Shown: positions 30,826-53,151, counted from the stretch's first letter. The stretch: DNA of 53,151 nt from an uncultured Candidatus Saccharibacteria bacterium (GCA_964495685.1 CAZBVQ010000004.1:1-53151); one strand, 5' to 3'. The notes: generated by a model not told the origin, from the letters alone. Numbers and translations: made by a program.

Positions 30826-31872
30826 CTATAGTCGAGTAGAACCGATGGCGCCAATGACTCCCGATGCCACCGCCGTAGGAGTCCAATCAACTATTGTAGC
30901 CCCCACTTCCCTAGCAACACCGACATCCGTTGAAATAATTGTGCACCCCGCTGCTGTGGCCTCAACCAAAGTCATACCATAACCTTCAAACAGAGAAGTG
31001 TTCAGAAACAAATCGGCTGTTTTGTAGTAAGAAATCAACACCTCACTACCTATCCAGTCTTCAAATACTACAGTACTCCCCGACGAGCCCGCAAGACCGA
31101 GTTCTTTAGCTATTTTCTTTAATCTATCCTTTTCACTTCCACTGCCTAGGATAACCAATCCAGCCTTTGGTAATTTTTTCACTACCTCTTTCCAGGCCCT
31201 GATCCCTAAGATAAAATTCTTCTCCTTTTCCAATCTTCCAGCCATGAGTACAATCACTTCAAACTGCGGATATTTCTTGTGCAGATCGGCACCGGGAATA
31301 ATGGGCGCGTTCCGTATCCTCTCTGTATCGATCATGATCGGCCTCACCTCCACCCTACCCGCGTCAATCTTGAGTGAGTCGACCAAGAAATTCTTAATCT
31401 TATTCGACACTACACGAATGTGATCTGCTTTGGGTAGATATGACAAGGCCAGCGCTCGCCTGAGCTTATTCGATGCTCGGAAAGCGTATTTGGGACTACC
31501 TAGATCTTCGTGCACTTGTATCTCAAGTGGGATATGGAACTGCTTCTTGAGTGATATGCCCGCCATGGCTGTAAGCGACGCATCTTGGCAAGTGATATTC
31601 GTGATACCACGTCCAGGAACGATGACGCGACCGATCTTCATGGCATCGAATGAGTACTTGAGTTTGAATGCAGATGACGTCGAGTATGCCCAACAATTCG
31701 GCGCAAGAACAACCTCACGAGAACCGCGCGCACGACACGCCTGCGCTGTTTCGAAAATAACAATATGAACCTCGTCCCACTGTTTGGCATACTCGATCTG
31801 ACGTGCACGAACAGCACTACCTTCTGTGAAGATGTTCCGGTCTGTCGATATCATAAGGAGGCGTCTATTCAT
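30826..31872 (-). CDS. Glycosyltransferase family 4
   Basis: MAGRLEKEKN and FEGYGMTLVEA. Confidence 0.88.
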   Translation of the reverse strand: MNRRLLMISTDRNIFTEGSAVRARQIEYAKQWDEVHIVIFETAQACRARGSREVVLAPNCWAYSTSSAFKLKYSFDAMKIGRVIVPGRGITNITCQDASLTAMAGISLKKQFHIPLEIQVHEDLGSPKYAFRASNKLRRALALSYLPKADHIRVVSNKIKNFLVDSLKIDAGRVEVRPIMIDTERIRNAPIIPGADLHKKYPQFEVIVLMAGRLEKEKNFILGIRAWKEVVKKLPKAGLVILGSGSEKDRLKKIAKELGLAGSSGSTVVFEDWIGSEVLISYYKTADLFLNTSLFEGYGMTLVEATAAGCTIISTDVGVAREVGATIVDWTPTAVASGVIGAIGSTRL

Positions 31873-36860: not shown

Positions 36861-36878
36861 GGGTGTTGGGGACAAGTG

Positions 36879-36980
36879 CCCCGCACGATATGTGCACACG
36901 CCACGATGAACAGATCTTGGCACTCACTCGGCACACCACGATGTCACCTTCATCGTGGCGTGTGCACATATCGTGCGGGG
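36879..36980. repeat. Perfect 32-bp inverted repeat with 38-nt spacer
   Basis: CCCCGCACGATATGTGCACACGCCACGATGAA (36879-36910) and its exact reverse complement (36949-36980). Confidence 0.95.
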
Positions 36981-37011
36981 TGCTTTGTCATTCTTGCAAC
37001 CTGTCCCAAAG

Positions 37012-38289
37012 CTACTTCGGCAACAAAGCCCCTTTGTTATACACACTCGCCGCATTCCAGAGCATCCAGCTTGAAAGGCCCACATCATATGTCGCTTGAA
37101 TTTGTTTGCGCACCATCTCGGGTGTGTAGATACCACCCAGGTCGAATGCTTGCAGCCAAGGCCTCAACTTGTTCTTGTCATACATCTGTTTGGTATAGAG
37201 CTGAGGCGTCGTCGAAGCAATCGCTGATTCCCCTACCAACACCGACGTGGTCGTCGTTGATACCGCTTTGCGTATAGCACTCGACATCGAGCTCTTGATG
37301 ATCTCATAGGGATATTTGGCCGGCTTGGCATACCCATCATATCCTGGACCGAAATGCGAGGGATATACCATGGGTGCCACGTAATCGAATGAGGCCAAAC
37401 CATATTCAAGTATCTGACCGATACCGAGATCACCTTCAGCACTCGTGGTCAGACCGAAGAGATCTGCTGAGGTCGGGATCCCCGAATCTACAAATTCATG
37501 ATGCATGTATGCATAAAAATCCTTGATGATCTCGGTGCGTGTCCGTCCATTGGCCCACGTGTAGGAAATATCCTCAAGGTTTCCGTCTGACGGGAAACGA
37601 ATGTAATCGAAGTTGAGTTCGTCGAATCCATATGCGTACGCCTGTCGACCGATTCGTGCAACATATTCCCAGACTGGTTTGGCACCAGCATCAAGCCATT
37701 TGACCCCCTTGTAATCTTGCCAGACTGCACCTTCTTTTGTTTTGACAGCCCATTCAGGGTGAACGTTGATCAGATATGAATCTTGGAATACAGATATGCG
37801 TGCAATGACATACATGCCCTTGCTATGAAGCTTCTCGATGAGTTCCTTGATATCAGGAATGCGATTCTCAGAAGCGCCGGATGCCACAAGATCAGGGTCA
37901 TCCACAGCGAAGCTGATACGTCCAGTGTAATCTTTGACATCAATCACGACCGCATTGATCTCTGTGTGATCAGCAAGATCATACAGATGTTCGCGGAATT
38001 TGGAGCTTCCCGCAGCCCAGCTCGACATATACACGCCCTTGAGCGGCTCCGGTGTAGGTAGATGTGTCGCCTTCCATACAGGTGTCGATGAAGCGATCAT
38101 ATCCGTGCTGGTGGCCATAGCGGTCGCCGCTGTCGAAACAGTTGAATCTGAACCGAGAACTGAATACGAGATTGTCCCCATCGGCAACAACCAGACGATG
38201 AGCGCAACAACCACAATGATACAGAACGCTCCAGCGATTATCGTCGCAGGGCGAGTAACGCCTTGCAGATCACGCCAGAGCTCCCTCAT
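37012..38289 (-). CDS. Putative glycoside hydrolase (DUF4015-like) with N-terminal membrane anchor
   Basis: KGVYMSSW, NAVVIDVKD..G, IARISVFQD, GFDELNFDYIRFP, PMVYPSHF and LRPWLQAF. Confidence 0.8.
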   Translation of the reverse strand: MRELWRDLQGVTRPATIIAGAFCIIVVVALIVWLLPMGTISYSVLGSDSTVSTAATAMATSTDMIASSTPVWKATHLPTPEPLKGVYMSSWAAGSSKFREHLYDLADHTEINAVVIDVKDYTGRISFAVDDPDLVASGASENRIPDIKELIEKLHSKGMYVIARISVFQDSYLINVHPEWAVKTKEGAVWQDYKGVKWLDAGAKPVWEYVARIGRQAYAYGFDELNFDYIRFPSDGNLEDISYTWANGRTRTEIIKDFYAYMHHEFVDSGIPTSADLFGLTTSAEGDLGIGQILEYGLASFDYVAPMVYPSHFGPGYDGYAKPAKYPYEIIKSSMSSAIRKAVSTTTTSVLVGESAIASTTPQLYTKQMYDKNKLRPWLQAFDLGGIYTPEMVRKQIQATYDVGLSSWMLWNAASVYNKGALLPK

Positions 38290-42075: not shown

Positions 42076-42266
42076 AGGTTTCCTATGTGGCACTATCTCC
42101 TGCGATAGTATTTTTTGGTGAGGATAGGCTAAACACAACATCTGTGTCGCCATAGCTTGGAAGTGCCTATTTGATTTCATTTCGAGAAATATAAGCATCT
42201 CAAAGCTATGGCGAACTATAAAGATTTTCAAGGATTCTAGAAAAAATTTTATCTCTTTCTTTATAT

Positions 42267-42367: not shown

Positions 42368-43144
42368 ATGAACACCAAAACTCTTTCCACCCGAGCACTT
42401 TCGGTCATAGATCAGTATCGCCAGTTCACTGTCGGGTCAGCGACGTGTTCGGTGCCCTATTTCAATAACAAGACCAAACGATCTCGCGGCGCTCTCCGTG
42501 TATATGTCGGCAAAGGTAGTCCAAAAGAGCTTTTTGAGGAAATCCAGTCCGTACTCGTCAAAGCCCACATAGATACATCTACCATCTCGAACGAAACGAT
42601 CAAAAAGTTACTCACTGATGAAAATATCGGCATCGATTGTTCGGGTTTTGCATACTATGTACTCAATAGCCAGAACGAAGAAATCGGCAAAGGTAAAATA
42701 GACAAACATCTTTCATTTATCAATTGTCATGGCCTAATCGGCAAAATGCGCTGCGCACTTCGACCCATCGAAAACTGTGACGTCGCCACGTTCGCACATG
42801 ATTCAAACAGTCGACTCGTCACTCTCAAAGACGTCACCCCTGGAGACATGATCACCATGTTGAACGACTCCCAAGAAAATGAACGTGACCACATTCTAGT
42901 CATCCACCAAGTCGAGTACCAGAATTTCATTCCCTACCAAATTCACTACTCTCACGCCGTCGCATACCCCGAGGATGGTATCTACGGCACCGGCATCAAA
43001 CAAGGCACCATAGAGATCCTCGACCTCAACAAACCGCTCACCGATCAGCTCTGGACCGAGAATGGCAAGACCGCCGAAGCAAACCGCATCTTCACGCGCG
43101 CCCAAAAATCAAAAACCGAAATCCGCCGTCTCAAGTGGTGGTAA
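42368..43144 (+). CDS. NlpC/P60-like (papain-fold) cysteine amidase
   Basis: GIDCSGF catalytic-Cys motif, PGD and DHILVI (His). Confidence 0.7.
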   Translation: MNTKTLSTRALSVIDQYRQFTVGSATCSVPYFNNKTKRSRGALRVYVGKGSPKELFEEIQSVLVKAHIDTSTISNETIKKLLTDENIGIDCSGFAYYVLNSQNEEIGKGKIDKHLSFINCHGLIGKMRCALRPIENCDVATFAHDSNSRLVTLKDVTPGDMITMLNDSQENERDHILVIHQVEYQNFIPYQIHYSHAVAYPEDGIYGTGIKQGTIEILDLNKPLTDQLWTENGKTAEANRIFTRAQKSKTEIRRLKWW

Positions 43145-43145
43145 A

Positions 43146-43311
43146 TGCACCAGAACAACAGTGTGCACAAGGAAGACGAGGACTGTCTGAGTCGCCGAAC
43201 TTGGCTAGGCCTTTTGGCACGGTCAGATTTTTGCCCCGTGTGACAAAAGGCCTTGCAAGTTCGTGCGGCGAGTTCCGCAGTCTTCCTTGTGCACACTGTT
43301 GTTCTGGTGCA
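43146..43311. repeat. Hairpin element copy 1: 102-nt conserved core inside a perfect 32-bp inverted repeat
   Basis: Arms 43146-43177 and 43280-43311 are exact reverse complements. Core 43178-43279 matches 47776-47877 at 99/102. Confidence 0.95.
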
Positions 43312-43355
43312 CCAAACCCTTGTCGTAGGCCCTATTTTCGTGATATTGTGTCATA

Positions 43356-44486
43356 ATGATAACTATCCTTGAGGGCACCGCCGATCTCTCATATATCATC
43401 TCATTCGCCCTGATTGGCGCTATTGGTGCATACCTATTGGCACCCCTCCTCATTCGTACCCTTTTCAAGCTCAATGTCATCAAAGGTGCAAAGACAGAGC
43501 TCGTCAACCTCGGCTCTCACGCCTACAAGGCCACTACTCCCGTCATGGGCGGACTCCTCGTCATCATCGTCGTCGCACTCGTCACCTATATATTCAACTG
43601 GAATCGCTCATTCACCTATGTCCCTATCGGTGTCATGATCATATCTGCCGCCCTCGGTGCCATCGACGACCTGCTCAATATTTATGGCTCAGAACGTCGC
43701 TCCCGCAAACTCGGTCACATCATGAATTTGATCCGTGTTCACAGCGACTGGAAGATGCGCCTGTGGTACATCATCACCTTGCCCTGGAGTGCCTTCAAGC
43801 GTCTCTCGGTCTGGTTCGGATCACGCACTAGTCGCGGCGTCTTCGTTCACGAGAAACTCATCCTCCAATTCATCGCCGGCGCCATCGCTGCCTGGTGGAT
43901 TTACACCAAGCTAGGACCTGCCTGGCACTTCATTTATTTCCCCTTCGTACCTGCTGGCCTCGATATAGGATGGATCATTATTCCGGTGATTATTTTCATG
44001 GTCATGTTCACCGCCAACGCCGTCAATATCGCCGACGGCATGGATGGTCTGGCTGGCGGCATGCTCACCATCACTTTCACTGCACTCACCATCCTCTCAT
44101 GGATCAACGGATTCGGTGAGATCGCCATCCTGAATGCTACGACCGCTGGCGCACTGGTCGCCTATACCTATTTCAATATCAAACCAGCTCGCTTCATGAT
44201 GGGCGATGTCGGCAGTCTCGGTCTCGGTGCCTTGCTAGCCGTGAATGCTATGGCTATCGGCGAACTCATTCCTCTTCTTTTCATCGGCTTCATGTTCTAC
44301 GTCGAAGCTCTTTCAGTCATCATCCAGGTCGTATCGCGATACACCCTCGGTCGCAAACTATTCCGCATGGCACCACTGCATCACCATTTCGAACTCAAGG
44401 GCTGGACCGAGGAGAAGACCGTGATGCGTTTCTGGGTCGTCCATTTCTTGTTCGTCATATTTGGATTCTGGCTAGCGTTGCACTAG
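43356..44486 (+). CDS. mraY: Phospho-N-acetylmuramoyl-pentapeptide transferase (MraY family) with loop insertion
   Basis: TPVMGG, GAIDD, ANAVNIADGMDGL, PARFMMGDVGS and FRMAPLHHHFELKGW. Confidence 0.88.
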   Translation: MITILEGTADLSYIISFALIGAIGAYLLAPLLIRTLFKLNVIKGAKTELVNLGSHAYKATTPVMGGLLVIIVVALVTYIFNWNRSFTYVPIGVMIISAALGAIDDLLNIYGSERRSRKLGHIMNLIRVHSDWKMRLWYIITLPWSAFKRLSVWFGSRTSRGVFVHEKLILQFIAGAIAAWWIYTKLGPAWHFIYFPFVPAGLDIGWIIIPVIIFMVMFTANAVNIADGMDGLAGGMLTITFTALTILSWINGFGEIAILNATTAGALVAYTYFNIKPARFMMGDVGSLGLGALLAVNAMAIGELIPLLFIGFMFYVEALSVIIQVVSRYTLGRKLFRMAPLHHHFELKGWTEEKTVMRFWVVHFLFVIFGFWLALH

Positions 44487-44490
44487 CATC

Positions 44491-45153
44491 ATGCCTTATC
44501 TTTCCTGGAACGAACAAACGATCACTGATTTCTCGGACAAGCACATCTCCGAAATGTATGGTCATGGCTACGTCTTCACCCGTATCGCCCGAGGGGTGAT
44601 GCACCAAACACGTTCCGTGCGCATTGACCTATCGAAGTTCGAGCTCACCAGCGAGAATCGTCGCATTCTCAAGAAGACCGATGAGCTGAGACTCATCGAC
44701 CGACCGACACCCCTTCCAGACTATGACTGGTCACTCGGCAAGCTGGCCAAGGATTTCTATGAGACCAAATTCGGTGCCGGCACCATGAGCGCGGCCAAGG
44801 TCAAAGAGATGCTCACCGATGCTACGGCCAGCAACTTCAATACACTTCTGCAATATACCAACGCCTCCGACAAAGCTGTCGGCTACGCGATCTGCCATTC
44901 AAATAAATATATGCTGCATTATTCATACCCATTCTACGACCTTGATGCAGCACCCAAAGACGCAGGCCTCGGCATGATGATTCGCGCCATTGTCTTTGCG
45001 CGAGAATCTGGCATGAAACATATCTACCTCGGTTCACTCCAACGTCCTTCTGACACCTACAAATTACAATTCCATGGCCTCGAATGGTTCGACGGGACAG
45101 CATGGTCACATGATCTCCAGAAGGTCCGTGAAATTCTCGCGACAACCAAATAA
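44491..45153 (+). CDS. Arginyl-tRNA--protein transferase (ATE/Bpt)-like aminoacyl-tRNA-dependent transferase
   Basis: RI.L..F......RRILKK (ATE_N-like) and Y.FYD....LG...I..AR..G.K.IYLG.....YK..F (ATE_C-like). Confidence 0.7.
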   Translation: MPYLSWNEQTITDFSDKHISEMYGHGYVFTRIARGVMHQTRSVRIDLSKFELTSENRRILKKTDELRLIDRPTPLPDYDWSLGKLAKDFYETKFGAGTMSAAKVKEMLTDATASNFNTLLQYTNASDKAVGYAICHSNKYMLHYSYPFYDLDAAPKDAGLGMMIRAIVFARESGMKHIYLGSLQRPSDTYKLQFHGLEWFDGTAWSHDLQKVREILATTK

Positions 45154-45201
45154 CACAGGTGACTGATAGAAATCGAGGAGATTCTCCTGTATGATATCGG
45201 C

Positions 45202-46596
45202 ATGAATCAATTACCCCGACACGTTCACGTCATCGGCATCTGTGGCGTTGCTACCAGCGCTCTAGCTATTGCTTTCCACAAGAAGGGCGTCAAAGTCACA
45301 GGGAGTGATAAAGGCTTTTATCCACCTGTTTCAACCTATCTCAAGAACGCAGGGATACCCTATTATGCCGGCTGGCATCCTGAGAACATTACTGCGGGTG
45401 AAAAACCTGATTTCATTATGATTGGTGGTGTTGGTACCAGCCCTTCAAACCCAGAGTATCTTTACGCTCACGAAAATAACATCCCTGTCTATCCATATGC
45501 CGAGGTGTTGGAAAAATATTTTATTAAAAAAAATTCAGTAGTTGTCGCGGGTACCTGGGGAAAAACAACAACTTCTTCCCTGCTTTCATTCATTATGATC
45601 CGAGCGGGACTGAATCCAAGCTACTTTACCGGCGGACTTTCGTTGTCACATGATACTGGCGCACTCACCGACACAGATTGGAGCATCGTCGAAGGAGATG
45701 AGTACCAAGTCTCTATCAGCGATCGTAGACCGAAGTTCGTGTACTACGCCCCGACCCACTTACTACTGACCTCAGTCTCATGGGACCACGCCGACCTGTA
45801 TCCTACGGAGAAAGCATACATCGATGAATTCACCAAGCTCGTACAACATATCCCCTCAAACGGACGTGTTGTAGCATGTATTGATGACGGTGGTGTGCAG
45901 CACGTTATACAGAATAGAGCAGTAATCAGTTACGGACAGTCTGCATCTGCCGACTACCGATATGGATCAGTCGCCACAACAAAAAATGGTCTCGACCTGA
46001 CTATTACTCACGCAGGCAAGACATTCAAAATACACTCACCGATGCTAGGCAGATTCAACGCGGAAAATATTGCAGGCGCTTTTGCCATGGCCTGCGAGAT
46101 TGGCGTCACACCAGAGATTACTACACAAGCGATCGCTGATTTCAAAGGAATAAGACGACGTTTTGAAAAAAGACTCGATGGTGAAAAAACGGTACTTGAT
46201 TGTCATGCACCAACAGCAGAAAAGGCAGCCTCAGTTCTGGAGGCCATTCGTGAGGTCTATCCAAAACGAGTTATTGCGGTGTATGAACCAAATATCGGTG
46301 GCCGTCAGCGCGCCTCGGCTCATGCCTATAACAATGCCTTCAAGGACGCAGATATAGTCATCATTCCTCACCTCACAAAAATCAAAGTGGCAGAAGATGC
46401 CTCTGAGCAACCTATGGAAGCTGATGAATTGGCAAAGACAATCGCTCGGACACACAAATATGTCCGTTCGATTGAAATCGACCAAAACGTAGTCGAATTC
46501 CTATCATCAGAGACCCGCCCAGGCGACGTGATCGTCTTCCTCGGATCCCATGGATTCAGGGGTATGATCGAAGAGGCAGTCAAATCACTATCCTAA
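45202..46596 (+). CDS. Mur ligase of the Mpl/MurC type
   Basis: IGICG...GSD...YPP (Mpl-like N-terminus), AGTWGKTTT, EGDEY, WDHAD and FKGIRRRFE. Confidence 0.85.
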   Translation: MNQLPRHVHVIGICGVATSALAIAFHKKGVKVTGSDKGFYPPVSTYLKNAGIPYYAGWHPENITAGEKPDFIMIGGVGTSPSNPEYLYAHENNIPVYPYAEVLEKYFIKKNSVVVAGTWGKTTTSSLLSFIMIRAGLNPSYFTGGLSLSHDTGALTDTDWSIVEGDEYQVSISDRRPKFVYYAPTHLLLTSVSWDHADLYPTEKAYIDEFTKLVQHIPSNGRVVACIDDGGVQHVIQNRAVISYGQSASADYRYGSVATTKNGLDLTITHAGKTFKIHSPMLGRFNAENIAGAFAMACEIGVTPEITTQAIADFKGIRRRFEKRLDGEKTVLDCHAPTAEKAASVLEAIREVYPKRVIAVYEPNIGGRQRASAHAYNNAFKDADIVIIPHLTKIKVAEDASEQPMEADELAKTIARTHKYVRSIEIDQNVVEFLSSETRPGDVIVFLGSHGFRGMIEEAVKSLS

Positions 46597-46599
46597 CCT

Positions 46600-46773
46600 C
46601 TACTTGCCCTCGTCAACGATCTCAGTAGAGACCTTGCCATCAGCGGCAATATTCTTGACCGCGAGAGTCATACCGCAGTGATTACATTCGATGACCATAC
46701 CTGCTGCCAGATTGGGATATCGAGAGAGGTCGATGGTATTTTTGCATTCTGGACACATACAAAGCATATTCAT
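46600..46773 (-). CDS. LysW-like zinc-ribbon small carrier protein (57 aa)
   Basis: CPEC...CNHC and a C-terminal EIVDEGK. Start re-called at MNMLCMC, 9 nt after CATAAT. Confidence 0.7.
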   Translation of the reverse strand: MNMLCMCPECKNTIDLSRYPNLAAGMVIECNHCGMTLAVKNIAADGKVSTEIVDEGK

Positions 46774-46874
46774 AGTTTTGAGATTATGATGAAACATGAG
46801 TGGTAGATAACAAACGGCCGCAGAGCGTCCGTGCTTCACATGGTACCCGAAAAAAGGTAGTATGACAACATTCT

Positions 46875-47750
46875 ATGACAACTCCCCTCGAACACTACCC
46901 TGAATTGGCGTCAGCTATTGGTGTAGCCGACCTCTATTTCAAGCGCGAAGATCTGCACCCTTACGGGTCTCACAAGGGCCGCTCCATTCCGGTCATGATA
47001 GATACCTACTACGACACAGGCGACCGAGAATTCGCCATCTCTTCGTCAGGTAATGCGGCATTGGCGGCGGCAATACACGTACAGAGCAAACCTGACTGCA
47101 ACCTCAATATATTCGTAGGTAACCACGTCTCCCCCACCAAGCTCGAACGTATCGAGAAGGTCGCTGCGACCGCCAATGGCCGAATCCGCATCCTCACCAA
47201 AGAACGCCCCCTCCAGGCACTTACCCAAGCGATAAGTGAGGGCAAACGAAGTCTCCGCCAGTCGACAGATGACGTCGCTCTCGTCGGCTATCAGTCATTG
47301 GCCGAAGAATTGGCCACAGCAGCACAATCAGACAAAATAGCCGCCCTATTCATCGGCACATCTTCAGGAACAACAGCCCAAGCCCTAGCGAGCTATTTTT
47401 TGAACAAAAAAATCCCTATTCAAGTGCACATAGTCCAGACGTCCTCATGCCATCCACTTGCCCAAGAATTCAATCCGTATGATGGCCCTGATGAACGTTC
47501 CCGCGCTGACGCTATTGTCGATATCTCTGCCCAACGGAAGTCGACACTCATCCCACTCATCGAGAAAACAGGTGGTTCCGGTTGGATTGCCACCAACGAA
47601 GATATTGATGCCGCCCGAGAACTGGTACGCGAACACACTCGATTAGATATTTCGACCAATAGCGCACTTTCGATAGTCGGCGCCATGAAATCGACCTACA
47701 TCGATTATGAAATTGATGGCGCAGTCGTCTGTATGATTTGTGGAGAGTAG
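46875..47750 (+). CDS. PLP-dependent fold-type II enzyme (threonine synthase/cysteine synthase-like)
   Basis: YFKREDLHPYGSHKGR (PLP Lys), SSSGNAA and GTSSGTT phosphate loop. Confidence 0.85.
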   Translation: MTTPLEHYPELASAIGVADLYFKREDLHPYGSHKGRSIPVMIDTYYDTGDREFAISSSGNAALAAAIHVQSKPDCNLNIFVGNHVSPTKLERIEKVAATANGRIRILTKERPLQALTQAISEGKRSLRQSTDDVALVGYQSLAEELATAAQSDKIAALFIGTSSGTTAQALASYFLNKKIPIQVHIVQTSSCHPLAQEFNPYDGPDERSRADAIVDISAQRKSTLIPLIEKTGGSGWIATNEDIDAARELVREHTRLDISTNSALSIVGAMKSTYIDYEIDGAVVCMICGE

Positions 47751-47908
47751 CTGGCGGACATTTCATCTGAGTGTCGAGGACTGTTTGAGTCGCCGAACTT
47801 GGCTAGGCCTTTTGGCACGGTCAGATTTTTGCCCCGTGTGACAAAAGGCCTTGCAAGTTCGTGTGACGAGTTCCGCAGACACTCAGATGAAATGTCCGCC
47901 AGCTACTC
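47745..47908. repeat. Hairpin element copy 2: same 102-nt core inside a different perfect 31-bp inverted repeat
   Basis: Arms 47745-47775 and 47878-47908 are exact reverse complements. The left arm includes the last codon and TAG of the upstream gene. Confidence 0.95.
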
Positions 47909-47914
47909 AGACAC

Positions 47915-49276
47915 CTACAACCCCCTCACTGCCCGCACGAACTTGTCTCCACGTTCCCACTTGGAACCCTCGATACCGCCCGCATCGAATCCTGGACTGA
48001 ACAAGACACGATCGCCTTTTTGGGCACACTCGGAGGCTGTCCGCACCGCTTCTTCAATAGATGGAACTGTCCGGACATCCACCTGCTCGATAGTGTGCAA
48101 CAACGTGCGTTGGCGCATGGTACCACTACCAGGAATAGTGATAATCGTGTGCACATATTGTGGCAACTGACTATACAGTGCCTGATATTCATACCCCCCA
48201 TCGACACCACCGAAAATCAAGATCATATTCCTGCCCTGCGACAACGCCTCCACACCGGCACGTGCGGACTCGGGCGTCATGGAAGCCGTGTCATTATAAT
48301 ATTCAACGCCCTTGACCTTCTTGACCAATTCGAGACGACCCTTGAGCGCCTTCCAATCGACGAGCACATGTCGCGCCATATCCTCATCCACTTTGAACAA
48401 GGAAGCTGCCTGAAGTGCGAGGGCCGCATTGAGTCGATCATGGATACCTCGCCCTTCGAAACCCCATTCATCTGGTACACGCATCGCCTTGGTACGGAAC
48501 ATCTTGGCACGCTGTTGGATCGGCGCCTGGCGCACCGCATCGATAATCTCGTCAGTAGCAATAAGGAAATTGTTGTATGTCTGATAGGCCAATACCTGGA
48601 AGGGTGATTCCATGAGTCCACGTACTGTCGGCATATTCGTGAATATGGCAACATGCGGACTAATCCTCATGGCGTAGAGATCGGGAATAAGTTCATCGAC
48701 AATACGCATAAGCACAATATCACCACTGGTGATCTTCTTGAGACGGACGAGTGTACCATCAGCTGATTCCGGGTCAATCACATGCACATTCTGCGCCTCA
48801 TAGGTATGACAGGCCTTCTCAAGCATCGGAGCAAGAATAGACATGACCGTTGATTTGCCGCACACACCCATGACGCCGATGAGCGTCACCGGTGGAGCCA
48901 GCTTGAAAAAGAGCGTCTCTGGGTATTCGACAGATATAGGCTTCCGAGCCATATCCAATCGTCCTTGTTCCTGTTGTGTGTTGTGCGCATATATATCTCT
49001 CAAGAAGGAAGAATCTCGTGGATACTCTCGTGAGAGGATAATCAGATCCATATCGAGCAAATCTTCAGCTGGAATAGACCCGCAAATATAATTGGCGAGG
49101 CCGATCGATCGCAAGAATACGAGATGATGTTTGAGGCGGGCCTCACTTTTTAGGTCATATATAGAGACCCAGGCACCTGCCTTGATGAGATATTTGACAT
49201 CTTCGACCATCTCACCATGCGGGCCCAGGCCGATAACGGCCACTCGTTTGCCCTTGAAATAGTCGCGCAATGCCAT
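47915..49276 (-). CDS. murD: MurD-like Mur ligase, divergent
   Basis: Start re-called at MALRDYFKGKRVAVIGLG (49276). P-loop GVCGKST, GRLE, YYNDT, LIFGG and GDRVLFSPG. Confidence 0.7.
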   Translation of the reverse strand: MALRDYFKGKRVAVIGLGPHGEMVEDVKYLIKAGAWVSIYDLKSEARLKHHLVFLRSIGLANYICGSIPAEDLLDMDLIILSREYPRDSSFLRDIYAHNTQQEQGRLDMARKPISVEYPETLFFKLAPPVTLIGVMGVCGKSTVMSILAPMLEKACHTYEAQNVHVIDPESADGTLVRLKKITSGDIVLMRIVDELIPDLYAMRISPHVAIFTNMPTVRGLMESPFQVLAYQTYNNFLIATDEIIDAVRQAPIQQRAKMFRTKAMRVPDEWGFEGRGIHDRLNAALALQAASLFKVDEDMARHVLVDWKALKGRLELVKKVKGVEYYNDTASMTPESARAGVEALSQGRNMILIFGGVDGGYEYQALYSQLPQYVHTIITIPGSGTMRQRTLLHTIEQVDVRTVPSIEEAVRTASECAQKGDRVLFSPGFDAGGIEGSKWERGDKFVRAVRGL

Positions 49277-49301
49277 GATACGGGGTAGTGTACAGCGAAA
49301 T

Positions 49302-49607
49302 TTACACCCTCGCAATGAGCTGTTTCACTTTGATTAATTCCTGAAGCAATGCCTGAATCTTGACCCCCTCATGAGTATCCGAGCCACCGGAGGCAACAAA
49401 TGAAGTAAGCTTCTTCATGAAGACAGTATATATGTCATTCTGATACTGTTCGAGGACTTTGCGTTCAGTGGCATCGGTCACAGGGGTACCGAAACGACGA
49501 TCCATGACGCGCATCAAGGTCTCGGAACGATGTATCCCTTCATACATGATCGAATCATGTCGAATAATCCCGTCAAGGGATGGTGATACGAACTGATAAT
49601 CTCTCAT
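49302..49607 (-). CDS. Hypothetical protein (101 aa)
   Basis: Starts 5 nt after the radC stop and fills the gap to murD; helical composition. Confidence 0.55.
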   Translation of the reverse strand: MRDYQFVSPSLDGIIRHDSIMYEGIHRSETLMRVMDRRFGTPVTDATERKVLEQYQNDIYTVFMKKLTSFVASGGSDTHEGVKIQALLQELIKVKQLIARV

Positions 49608-52938: not shown

Positions 52939-53116
52939 GTGCGCGCACTAGGATTCGCCCGCGCCTCTCGCCTCACCAGTTCGGCTCGGGCTGGGCACCG
53001 GCTCGCGGCCTCGCGTGCTCGCTCGGCATCGCTCCGCCGTTCGAATCCTTGGACGCAACGTGCCGCAGGGCACGTTGCTCGTAGTTACATTGTATCTGTG
53101 CGCGCACTAGGATTCG
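52939..53116. repeat. 19-bp direct duplication of the tRNA 3' end enclosing a structured GC-rich segment (159-bp period)
   Basis: GTGCGCGCACTAGGATTCG at 52939-52957 and 53098-53116. Confidence 0.9.
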
Positions 53117-53151
53117 AACCTAGGACCCCACCAGTATCAGTGGTGTGCTCT
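53099..53151 (-). tRNA. tRNA-Ile(GAU), 5' end cut off by the window edge
   Basis: Minus strand reads AGAGCA-CACCA-CTGATAC-TGGTG-GGGTC-CTAGG-TTCGAAT-CCTAG-TGCGCGC-A. Anticodon GAT at 53138-53136; CCA is not encoded. Confidence 0.9.

Follow-up and report, generated by a model that had tools for sequence, protein, structure and literature searches.

A conserved two-strand junction inside perfect, site-specific hairpins: an apparently undescribed family of small repeats in many bacterial phyla

What kind of element keeps its middle constant and is closed, at each site, by long arms that are perfectly complementary to each other and different from those of the next copy? The question is raised by the window, a stretch of 53,151 nucleotides from an uncultured, ultra-small Candidatus Saccharibacteria bacterium, in which two such copies occupy positions 43146-43311 and 47745-47908. 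A sequence-only reading had described them as a 102-nt hairpin core wrapped in perfect 32- and 31-bp inverted repeats, and had proposed insertion with fold-back synthesis of flanking DNA by an enzyme of the reverse transcriptase (RT) or HUH type. Upon re-measurement, coordinates and sequences were confirmed and the observation as first described is real; its interpretation was partly supported.

Copy 1 begins 1 nt past the TAA stop codon of the ORF 42368-43144, a gene for 258 aa. On the plus strand, as for all parts given here, its 5' outer arm (43146-43177, 32 nt), which has no second occurrence in the genome, is followed by the 5' junction strand (43178-43191, GAGGACTGTCTGAG), one of two deeply conserved strands, then by a lineage-specific inner rod defined by the fold (43192-43268; GAACTTG/CAAGTTC, AGGCCTTTTG/CAAAAGGCCT and GCACGG/CCGTGT), by the 3' junction strand (43269-43279, CGAGTTCCGCA) and by the 3' outer arm (43280-43311, 32 nt), 44 nt upstream of the MraY start (43356). 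By eye, the outer half of this 3' arm bears a loose likeness to the post-stop spacer of two relatives, G116 and G028. In copy 2, the 5' outer arm (47745-47775, 31 nt) opens with the 6 nt GAG TAG, which close the PLP-enzyme ORF 46875-47750 as its last codon and stop, as had been noted. The core (47776-47877) consists of the junction strands 47776-47789 (GAGGACTGTTTGAG) and 47867-47877 and, between these, the inner rod. The last 6 nt of the 3' outer arm (47878-47908, 31 nt), CTACTC, repeat the gene end in reverse complement; 6 nt further on comes the stop codon of a convergent ORF, the Mur-ligase-like 47915-49315. Both arm pairs (43146-43177/43280-43311 and 47745-47775/47878-47908) are 100% complementary, with 102 nt between arms in each copy, and the two cores (43178-43279 and 47776-47877) are identical except at 3 of their 102 positions. 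All three differences from copy 1 to copy 2 preserve predicted pairs (C-G to U-A; G-C to G.U).

By an arithmetic estimate, about 5e-12 perfect 31-bp inverted repeats within 400 nt are expected in 53 kb, and when the window was shuffled 100 times with dinucleotides preserved, the two-motif pattern formed by the junction strands never appeared. With its flanks included (43140-43318), copy 1 was predicted to fold into a rod, in agreement with the first description (-113.7 kcal/mol, z = -14.4 compared with shuffles). Could the inverted arms be an assembly artefact? De Bruijn assemblers can be misled by inverted repeats as long as their words, and every carrier found is a metagenome-assembled genome (MAG). 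However, identical elements were present in two independent ENA assemblies (ERZ27309396 and ERZ28655916); Logan contigs from at least five other runs broke at the arm/core junctions or a few bases away at most, the behaviour expected at a repeat; and members of the family come from many studies and sequencing platforms, with lineage-specific interiors. An artefact is thus hardly credible.

A search with the core across the genome revealed a third copy on another contig (C3:49001-49165), with a core 91% identical and perfect 32-bp arms of unrelated sequence; it lies in the slot between genes for an M16 peptidase and an AI-2E transporter and is antisense to both adjacent genes. All three own copies are intergenic and 95 of their 95 arm pairs are Watson-Crick, G.U being tolerated in the junction and in the inner rod. 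Their arms are unrelated to each other, to the rest of the genome and to viral contigs; a candidate origin as acquired phage 'spacers' was rejected, as there was no exact match in viral contigs and no second genomic copy. The same genome contains two other hairpin families (B and C), in which arms are homologous between copies and vary from copy to copy, yet are complementary within each copy, perfectly or nearly.

The 102-nt core, first taken as the conserved unit, proved to be composite. Only its ends, GAGGACTGTYTGAG and CGAGTTCCGCA, are deeply conserved, and these strands of 14 and 11 nt form the junction at which the outer stem meets an inner hairpin that is lineage-specific and 5-110 nt long. 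Interiors are unrelated among subfamilies, and in the smallest members the inner rod shrinks to CGAAG, giving a minimal junction module of 30 nt (GAGGACTGTCTGAG-CGAAG-CGAGTTCCGCA). In RNA letters the junction reads 5'-GAGGACUGUYUGAG ... CGAGUUCCGCA-3', with partial pairing of GGACU with AG(U)UCC. We collected 125 distinct copies, with core lengths of 30-141 nt; 49 of them had arms of at least 20 bp (range 22-38, median 30), and in 25 the arms were perfect and at least 26 bp long. Pairing directly beside the junction was found in 7 of 80 copies only, because extra internal loops intervene. In sister subfamilies the inner part of the arms, a T-run/A-run module of 10-14 bp with the T-run inside the 5' arm, is carried with the element.

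The exact two-motif pattern gave 72 matches in species-representative genomes (MAGs) from many phyla and classes: Myxococcota, Acidobacteriota, Patescibacteria, Gamma- and Deltaproteobacteria, Leptospirales, Clostridia and Coriobacteriia. With at most one mismatch, the left motif was found in 7-41 copies in each of six genomes searched whole, compared with 0-4 matches per genome for the reversed-motif control. It was also present in 34 of 93 same-genus genomes (1-11 copies each; one control match in total), one of which carries identical 98-nt cores at five loci with differing outer arms. In a search for a parent element, left motifs with no right motif nearby were found in unrelated sequence. 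The anatomy, the dispersal in multiple copies and the conservation of the junction across phyla are thus shown.

No match to the window was obtained in Rfam 15 at gathering score, and permissive E-values (up to 10, up to 1) returned only chance miRNA-hairpin matches for copy 1 and nine loci from other phyla. The minimal module gave one weak chance match in a plasmid collection and none in a phage collection, nothing was found in metagenome scans, and the literature, searched by motif letters (full text) and by concept, yielded no description of the family. CRISPR- or TIGR-like arrays were rejected, the actinobacterial 'arrays' being merely 2-3 tandem duplicates. As the sequence-only reading had suspected, these small non-coding hairpin repeats of many bacterial phyla are apparently undescribed.

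Where do the arms come from? Arm edges touch or overlap stop codons in many copies, and where an arm runs over a conserved gene end, the far end of the opposite arm is its exact reverse complement. In copy 2, 6 nt are mirrored in this way (GAGTAG, at a conserved ...CGE* end; same-genus orthologues of ORF 46875-47750 end alike, in ...CGE* or ...CGD*, and one in CGQ*). At the same site in the genome G029, 10 nt are mirrored (TGGGGAATGA, again at the conserved ...CGE* end), and in L069 a stop codon lies 22 nt inside the arm. At the level of aligned gene ends, reverse-complement copying is thus demonstrable for 6-10 nt; the host-derived part possibly reaches 22 bp, and we infer that the remaining arm length arose likewise from host sequence. 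The proposal that the second arm is an inverted copy of the local chromosome is demonstrated only for the outermost 6-10 bp, at conserved gene ends. Similarly, the signature of a template switch, in which one arm is constrained sequence and the other its exact reverse complement, was found for those 6 and 10 nt only.

Related species carry hairpins in the same post-stop-codon slots, and in the same orientation, for all three own copies; on the MraY tree, elements fall in the clade (G000,(G116,G028)), where G000 is the own genome. For the sister pair G028 (filled) and G116 (empty), the alignment is ambiguous: either the element entered G028 and the flank was copied in inverted form, or an ancestral element was deleted from G116 and left a scar. 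A simple two-armed insertion, the first view of this pair, was abandoned for this better alignment. The G028 element has a direct repeat of 8-9 nt, GCGCGTAA(C), and no direct repeats flanking the three own copies were seen on reading. No empty allele was found within the species: contigs from other samples that encode the flanking proteins were filled or broke at the element. Samples that contain the species are SRR6747782, DRR783857, DRR274959, SRR14234037, SRR12487013 and the source runs of ERZ27309396 and ERZ28655916. Same-genus pairs are at most ~82% identical in DNA at the MraY locus, and the relatives of the multicopy genome G066, only ~70% identical, are too distant for spacer comparison.

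Relatives' spacer lengths fit the insertion of both arms as well as one native arm. If the whole hairpin was inserted, both arms included, the arms would diversify fast and host copying would be a minor, later extension of a few bases. The spacers left at the own slots after removal of the element (45, 6 and 24 nt) resemble the short spacers of most relatives, and own arms have 50-62% GC compared with AT-rich native spacers at the copy-3 slot (manual count). Arms in families B and C are homologous between copies, as are the inner 12-14 bp of the arms of the G028 and G126 elements at the copy-1 slot, which therefore travel with the element across species. Nevertheless, the own arms are related neither to one another nor to the rest of the genome or viral contigs, and the edges that run over gene ends prove host copying at least sometimes; we consider insertion of both arms to be quite improbable.

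Alternatively, the core might have inserted into the loop of pre-existing palindromes or terminators, in which case the arms would be old host hairpins. Simple hairpins do exist in the same slots of relatives (for example 13-15-bp stems in L031 and L146), and there are known elements that target hairpins, such as IS1397, which enters REP loops, and class C group II introns, whose insertion sites follow terminators. In the own genome, however, no core-less perfect palindrome with arms of at least 22 nt was found, the spacer of such perfect repeats always being at least 38 nt, and ordinary terminators have stems of 8-18 bp with A/T tracts. Furthermore, each site would independently need an older 31-bp stem that takes in the last codon and stop, and this origin seems very unlikely.

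The sense strand of the element folded better than the antisense strand in 73 copies, compared with 14 copies for the reverse. Mismatches in the arms of the family were 14 G:T versus 5 A:C, and compensatory changes were seen (G14-C to A-U; C-G to U-A or U.G). Tolerance of wobble pairs is strand-specific, and these changes point to a single-stranded structure, ssDNA or RNA, on one strand. A weak replication-strand bias was seen: of 90 copies, 56 have their sense strand on the C-rich strand, as do 14 of 24 in the same genus and all 3 own copies.

RT- or HUH-driven mobility, as first proposed, was rejected, since neither gene family was present in the own genome or in the genome with 41 copies (G070). 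The Y1/HUH transposase family PF01797 gave no match in G000, G065, G066, G069 and G070, and its only matches in carrier genomes were in G004, G067 and G068; the RT family PF00078 gave no match in G000, G004, G065, G068 and G070. No mobilising enzyme was identified and no gene was linked to the element among 72 loci, nor did any protein family recur beside it. The flanking genes are core cell-wall and housekeeping genes, with synteny conserved across the genus.

The explanation that we favour, at slightly below an even chance, is a mobile hairpin of the REP/MITE kind, with a stem that template switching during replication lengthens and keeps perfect; as a part of this explanation, and with the same reserve, the family would be functionally akin to REP, MITE and Rickettsia palindromic elements (RPEs). 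The heritable unit would be the two-strand junction between the variable inner hairpin and the long outer stem. Copies would spread, or re-seed, within genomes without an element-encoded or linked enzyme, preferring a few permissive slots just past stop codons, and would move by a host replication or repair route or by some trans-acting enzyme. The outer stem, of about 30 bp and not fixed in length, would be lengthened into flanking DNA, and its pairs would stay perfectly Watson-Crick because one arm is copied from the other at the DNA level, either through intrastrand template switching or through fold-back priming of the nascent strand at the hairpin. The creation and maintenance of perfect hairpins by template switching is documented (PMC8794818, PMC5941160).

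The main rival is a conserved functional structure, RNA or ssDNA, residing in 'terminator slots' after genes. It might stabilise the 3' end or mark it for processing, signal termination or insulation, or be bound by a universal protein; purifying selection would act on its junction, and the closing stem, which need only pair, would drift and be re-perfected. Judged from sequence comparison, the shared slots and orientation, with a constant junction and changing arms and rod, could equally mean such an element: in one slot, own copy 1 and G028 have an identical junction and wholly different arms and inner rods. In relatives that lack the element, the slot is often filled by an ordinary terminator hairpin, exact conservation of 14 and 11 nt across phyla is typical of functional RNAs, and strand asymmetry with wobble and compensatory changes suits a structure on one strand. 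On the other hand, orientation relative to co-directional gene pairs is random (18 sense, 15 antisense), so that the common orientation 3' of a plus-strand gene, first reported for copies 1 and 2, extends neither to the third copy nor to the family. Copy number varies from 0 to 41 per genome, two thirds of the same-genus genomes being devoid of copies, and the identical cores at several loci of one genome indicate recent copying. In addition, direct reading reveals no U-run after the hairpins, there is no Rfam family, and perfect Watson-Crick arms with no G.U at all are unlike the outcome of RNA-level selection alone. We judge the functional explanation rather unlikely.

A bolder proposal, which we regard as somewhat doubtful, is that the 30-nt module would be the sole heritable part of a class of transposase-independent mobile DNA hairpins dispersed among bacterial phyla, seeding post-stop slots on one replication strand and building both helices, the ~30-bp outer stem included, by serial template switching on host DNA; or else the junction would be a new ssDNA or RNA motif, nearly universal and recognised by a core enzyme of replication, repair or RNA processing. 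If true, the favoured explanation would define a selfish or semi-domesticated class of hairpins that need no enzyme of their own and have a structure partly built from adjacent host sequence, a natural case of template switching making long perfect stems, and an entry point to some unrecognised DNA or RNA transaction of organisms whose gene sets are minimal. It would also provide a new insertion signature for genome annotation and for assembly, where it matters because the elements break short-read contigs exactly at their junctions. The 25-nt junction, found from Patescibacteria to Myxococcota and Leptospirales and presumably read by some enzyme or fold, is a concrete, testable handle.

How do these hairpins compare with known systems? 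Retroelements (retrons, group II introns, DGRs) differ from them by their RT, PF00078 being absent from the five genomes searched. Intrinsic terminators differ by their U-run: the right arms are followed here by CCAAACC, AGACACC and CTATATA (copy 3, sense). The attC sites of integrons and the attP(+) site of CTX phage are ssDNA hairpins read by tyrosine recombinases. Like the present elements, they are placed immediately 3' of ORFs, have a conserved structure whose central part is left unpaired and whose terminal hairpin varies greatly in length, and act on one strand. However, the R''/R' core sites RYYYAAC/GTTRRRY are not found at the arm ends of the three copies, no integron context was seen, and the conserved part is here the bubble, whereas in attC it is the outer box; the synteny of the flanking core genes across the genus also argues against integron cassettes.

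RPEs are conserved over their full length and often translated in frame. They resemble our elements as palindromic selfish repeats of reduced genomes with no known transposase; in contrast, the three copies described here lie between genes, and their arms are site-specific. In MITEs the terminal inverted repeats are common to the whole family, the target site is directly duplicated, and there is a parent IS. With those of the Correia/NEMIS, RUP, BOX and ERIC types the present elements have in common that they are non-autonomous, small, intergenic repeats folding into long stem-loops, but the arms of the own copies are unrelated, no direct duplication was seen beside these copies, and the search for a parent element found none. 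No arm sequence is common to the own copies, and some sister subfamilies share the inner 10-14 bp module only. The layout is opposite to that of MITEs and REPINs, as the sequence-only reading had pointed out, with a constant middle and site-specific perfect arms in the three own copies.

Template-switch (quasi-palindrome) mutagenesis (PMC8794818, PMC5941160, PMC7202029) explains the perfect arms, the paired changes and the reverse-complement copies of neighbouring sequence; it is a mutational process and not an element, and leaves unexplained the spread of the junction and its invariance across phyla. REP and REPIN sequences are mobilised by RAYT (Y1 HUH) transposases (PMC2817692, PMC3733652). 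They have conserved arms and a variable loop, whereas here the middle is conserved and the own arms are unrelated, the internal junction is common to several phyla, and RAYT/Y1 genes are lacking in the own and several other carrier genomes. In their other properties the two resemble each other: both are short, non-coding, hairpin-forming and multicopy, are mostly found just past genes, and are thought to act as ssDNA.

Both copies of the element in the window consist of long perfect arms enclosing 102 nt. The arms of copy 1 (43146-43311) are 32 nt long and lie at 43146-43177 and 43280-43311, those of copy 2 (47745-47908) are 31 nt long and lie at 47745-47775 and 47878-47908, and the two cores differ at 3 positions; the coordinates, perfect arms and near-identity of the cores given by a sequence-only reading were exact for both. 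A third copy in the same Patescibacteria assembly (6 contigs, 834 kb in total), at 49001-49165 of contig C3, has a core that is 91% identical and perfect, unrelated 32-bp arms. Copy 1 starts 1 nt past the stop of a 258-aa ORF, 44 nt ahead of mraY (PF00953). Copy 2 occupies the gap between a PLP-enzyme gene (PF00291), which it overlaps by GAG TAG, and a convergent Mur-ligase-like gene, ending 6 nt ahead of the stop of the latter. Copy 3 starts immediately behind the stop codon of a gene for an M16 peptidase, ends 24 nt ahead of one for an AI-2E transporter and is antisense to both genes, so that the shared orientation 3' of a plus-strand gene, suggested by the window copies, is not a rule. The elements are present unchanged in two other ENA assemblies, and Logan contigs, from five or more additional runs, end at the arm/core junctions or no more than a few bases away, as expected of a repeat; together these rule out a single-assembly artefact.

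In a related genome (G004), the copy-2 spacer also contains an element; its first 14 and last 11 bases are those of copy 2, and its interior and arms differ. The two-motif pattern GAGGACTGTCTGAG-N60-90-CGAGTTCCGCA was therefore used as a query against one genome per prokaryote species. It gave 72 exact matches, every one in a metagenome-assembled or uncultured genome; the taxa represented are Myxococcota, Acidobacteriota, many Patescibacteria, Gamma- and Deltaproteobacteria, Leptospirales, Clostridia, Coriobacteriia and others. Within the genus, 34 of 93 genomes carry the left motif, each with 1-11 copies, and the same motif read backwards, used as a control, matched once in total. Among 125 distinct copies the core measures 30-141 nt, the long arms are grouped at 22-38 bp, with a median of 30, and in 25 copies they are perfect and 26 bp or longer. 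The shortest version, GAGGACTGTCTGAG-CGAAG-CGAGTTCCGCA, comes from a same-genus genome, and a Leptospirales genome (G070) carries the left motif 41 times, mostly with just GCC-GNA-GGC as interior. Because interiors differ or shrink while the two junction strands stay constant, the 102-nt core is not the conserved unit it had been taken for, but a composite of an invariant two-strand junction and a lineage-specific inner rod.

The junction also occurs in larger contexts. In G070 (L107-L126) the minimal hairpin lies within a larger repeat, whose right flank is conserved over more than 100 nt across copies. In Aminicenantes and Clostridiales MAGs (L036, L038, L047, L067, L081, L104) it lies within a rod-like element of about 200-260 nt; conservation extends to the flanks, even across genomes that are labelled as different phyla, and could point to a bigger structured element or to horizontal transfer. 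Coriobacteriia and Actinomycetes MAGs (L044, L076, L100) carry 2-3 head-to-tail tandem units with outer arms shrunk to a GC(C)GAAG(G)C mini-hairpin, and the two junction strands are therefore circularly permuted. At L055:6013-6170 (G066 = G132), the sequence just left of one element is a separate repeat of about 140 nt; about a dozen more copies of it, 74-98% identical, are present in that genome.

Folded together with its flanks, copy 1 forms a rod (-113.7 kcal/mol, z = -14.4), and the opposite strand folds nearly equally well. In an RNAalifold consensus of 16 Patescibacteria copies, GGACU pairs with AG(U)UCC, the C of GUCUGAG pairs with the base directly ahead of CGAG, and the arm columns covary freely. 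All three changes between copies 1 and 2 retain pairs (C-G to U-A; G-C to G.U); across the family, the most frequent variant, C to T, mostly keeps the G opposite (U.G, 9 of 12), and G14-to-A variants in a Myxococcota genome are accompanied by the matching C-to-T change. The better-folding strand is the sense strand in 73 copies versus the antisense strand in 14, and arm mismatches are more often G:T (14) than A:C (5). From these pair-keeping changes, the sense-strand excess and the mismatch bias, we conclude that single-stranded structure on one strand, which may be RNA or DNA, shapes the element. A GNA triloop with a C-G closing pair is well known as a very stable mini-hairpin of DNA, and gives only a hint towards a DNA strand. 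The sense strand is the C-rich strand in 56 of 90 copies, in 14 of 24 within the genus and in all three copies of this genome.

A check for a described family in Rfam gave no match for the element, and the junction hairpin was not found in plasmid and phage collections. The motif letters were absent from the literature searched, save six unrelated 11-mer matches, and concept-level searches yielded nothing more specific than papers on REPs and template switching in general. No recurrent protein family adjoins the element, and its orientation relative to co-directional neighbour genes is divided 18 to 15. The RT- or HUH-type mechanism first envisaged does not hold: neither a Y1/HUH transposase nor a reverse transcriptase gene was found in this genome or in the 41-copy genome.

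In related species the same spacers hold junction-family elements or hairpins with other cores. The copy-1 slot holds the junction family in G028, G126 and G062 and other cores in G025 and G145; the copy-2 slot holds the junction family in G004 and another core in G029; the copy-3 slot is occupied in G113. Slots that carry two other hairpin families (B and C) in this genome carry junction-family elements in G126 and G133. Element orientation is constant within each slot. This genome has about 23 long hairpins among roughly 880 spacers, from which we estimate chance slot overlap at about 3% per element; the observed sharing is several-fold above this. The excess means either that sites and strand are strongly preferred or that elements are inherited while arms and rods turn over fast, and the latter would imply purifying selection on the junction. 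A functional element with its junction under such selection appears rather unlikely to us; the main ground for keeping it is these shared slots, if they are inherited with turnover. In G010 (L249), the 319 nt between the 258-aa gene and mraY hold a classical bidirectional terminator and an apparent tRNA gene on the opposite strand.

This genome contains further hairpins. One at 36874-36985 of the window, 26 nt past the stop of ORF 37012-38289 (-), has 37-nt arms (95% complementary, 32 perfect) and a 38-nt loop; homologous loops (GGTNRAYWTCGTGGTRTGC...CCAAGATCTG) on mostly different stems of about 35 bp lie at C1:401147, C2:18197, C3:24413 and C1:426119. Another family, with loop ...AAGCCGAAAATGTAGCCAGCGATCAGCGCTTTGAGGCTT... 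(C2:64836-64946, C6:15799-15903, C1:46342, C1:216101, C1:355368, C1:297287), has arms that are homologous between copies and, inside any one copy, pair perfectly or nearly so; the flanking sequence often contains GGTGTGGATAAG, including the perfect DnaA-box consensus TGTGGATAA. A palindrome of about 40 bp on TTCCAGGCCCGGCCTAGAA|TTCTAGGCCGGGCCTGGAA (C1:198778, C1:253193, C6:23735, C2:64955, C1:398622, C2:49504), without spacer between the arms in four of six copies, looks like a separate REP-like family. Imperfect inverted repeats at 31669-31807 (27-nt arms, 78% complementarity, 85-nt spacer) and 42147-42214 (24-nt arms, 83%, 20-nt spacer) may be decayed hairpin elements. A tRNA gene at 53099-53151 (-) is truncated by the window end (RF00005, 37.7 bits).

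One arm had been read as an inverted copy of local host DNA. Same-genus orthologues of the PLP enzyme end in ...CGE* or ...CGD* (one in CGQ*); copy 2 thus has native host sequence, GAGTAG, in its left arm, and the CTACTC that ends its right arm was copied from it. G029 has a hairpin with another core at this site, and its 28-bp arms take in TGGGGAATGA, the final codons together with the stop. In L069 an arm contains a stop codon 22 nt in from its edge, and in many copies arm edges adjoin or overlap stop codons (0-7 nt). On this evidence the arm edges are of host origin, as that reading held; the remaining arm parts would be so by extension. Two observations count against one arm being native: in sister subfamilies the inner part of the arms is a module (T-run, 4-8 nt, C, core, G, 4-8 nt, A-run) common to several loci, even across species, and in families B and C the arms are homologous between copies and complementary within each copy. 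Spacer lengths in relatives are compatible with a native arm and with the alternative alike. Old terminators as the source of the arms were ruled out, since this genome has no long perfect core-less palindromes.

At the copy-1 slot, G116 (empty) can be compared with its sister G028 (filled). The best alignment sets TAG-GTGCTG-TGGAGTGCC of G116 against ...AAAATAG-GTGTTG-TGGAGCGCG of G028, where this sequence spans the outer right arm and flank. This fits a stop-codon insertion with inverted (CAACACC) and direct (GCGCGTAA) copies of downstream host DNA, a pattern typical of serial template switching. Equally parsimonious is deletion of an ancestral element in G116, the scar supplying the stop codon; in the MraY tree this genome groups with (G116, G028), with support 85/87.

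The layout proposed from the sequence, with a constant middle and site-specific arms, the reverse of that of MITEs and REPINs, holds. We rate junction hairpins as a variant within the REP/MITE/RPE kind, unusual among these in that the junction is conserved across phyla and the stem is dynamic and partly host-built.
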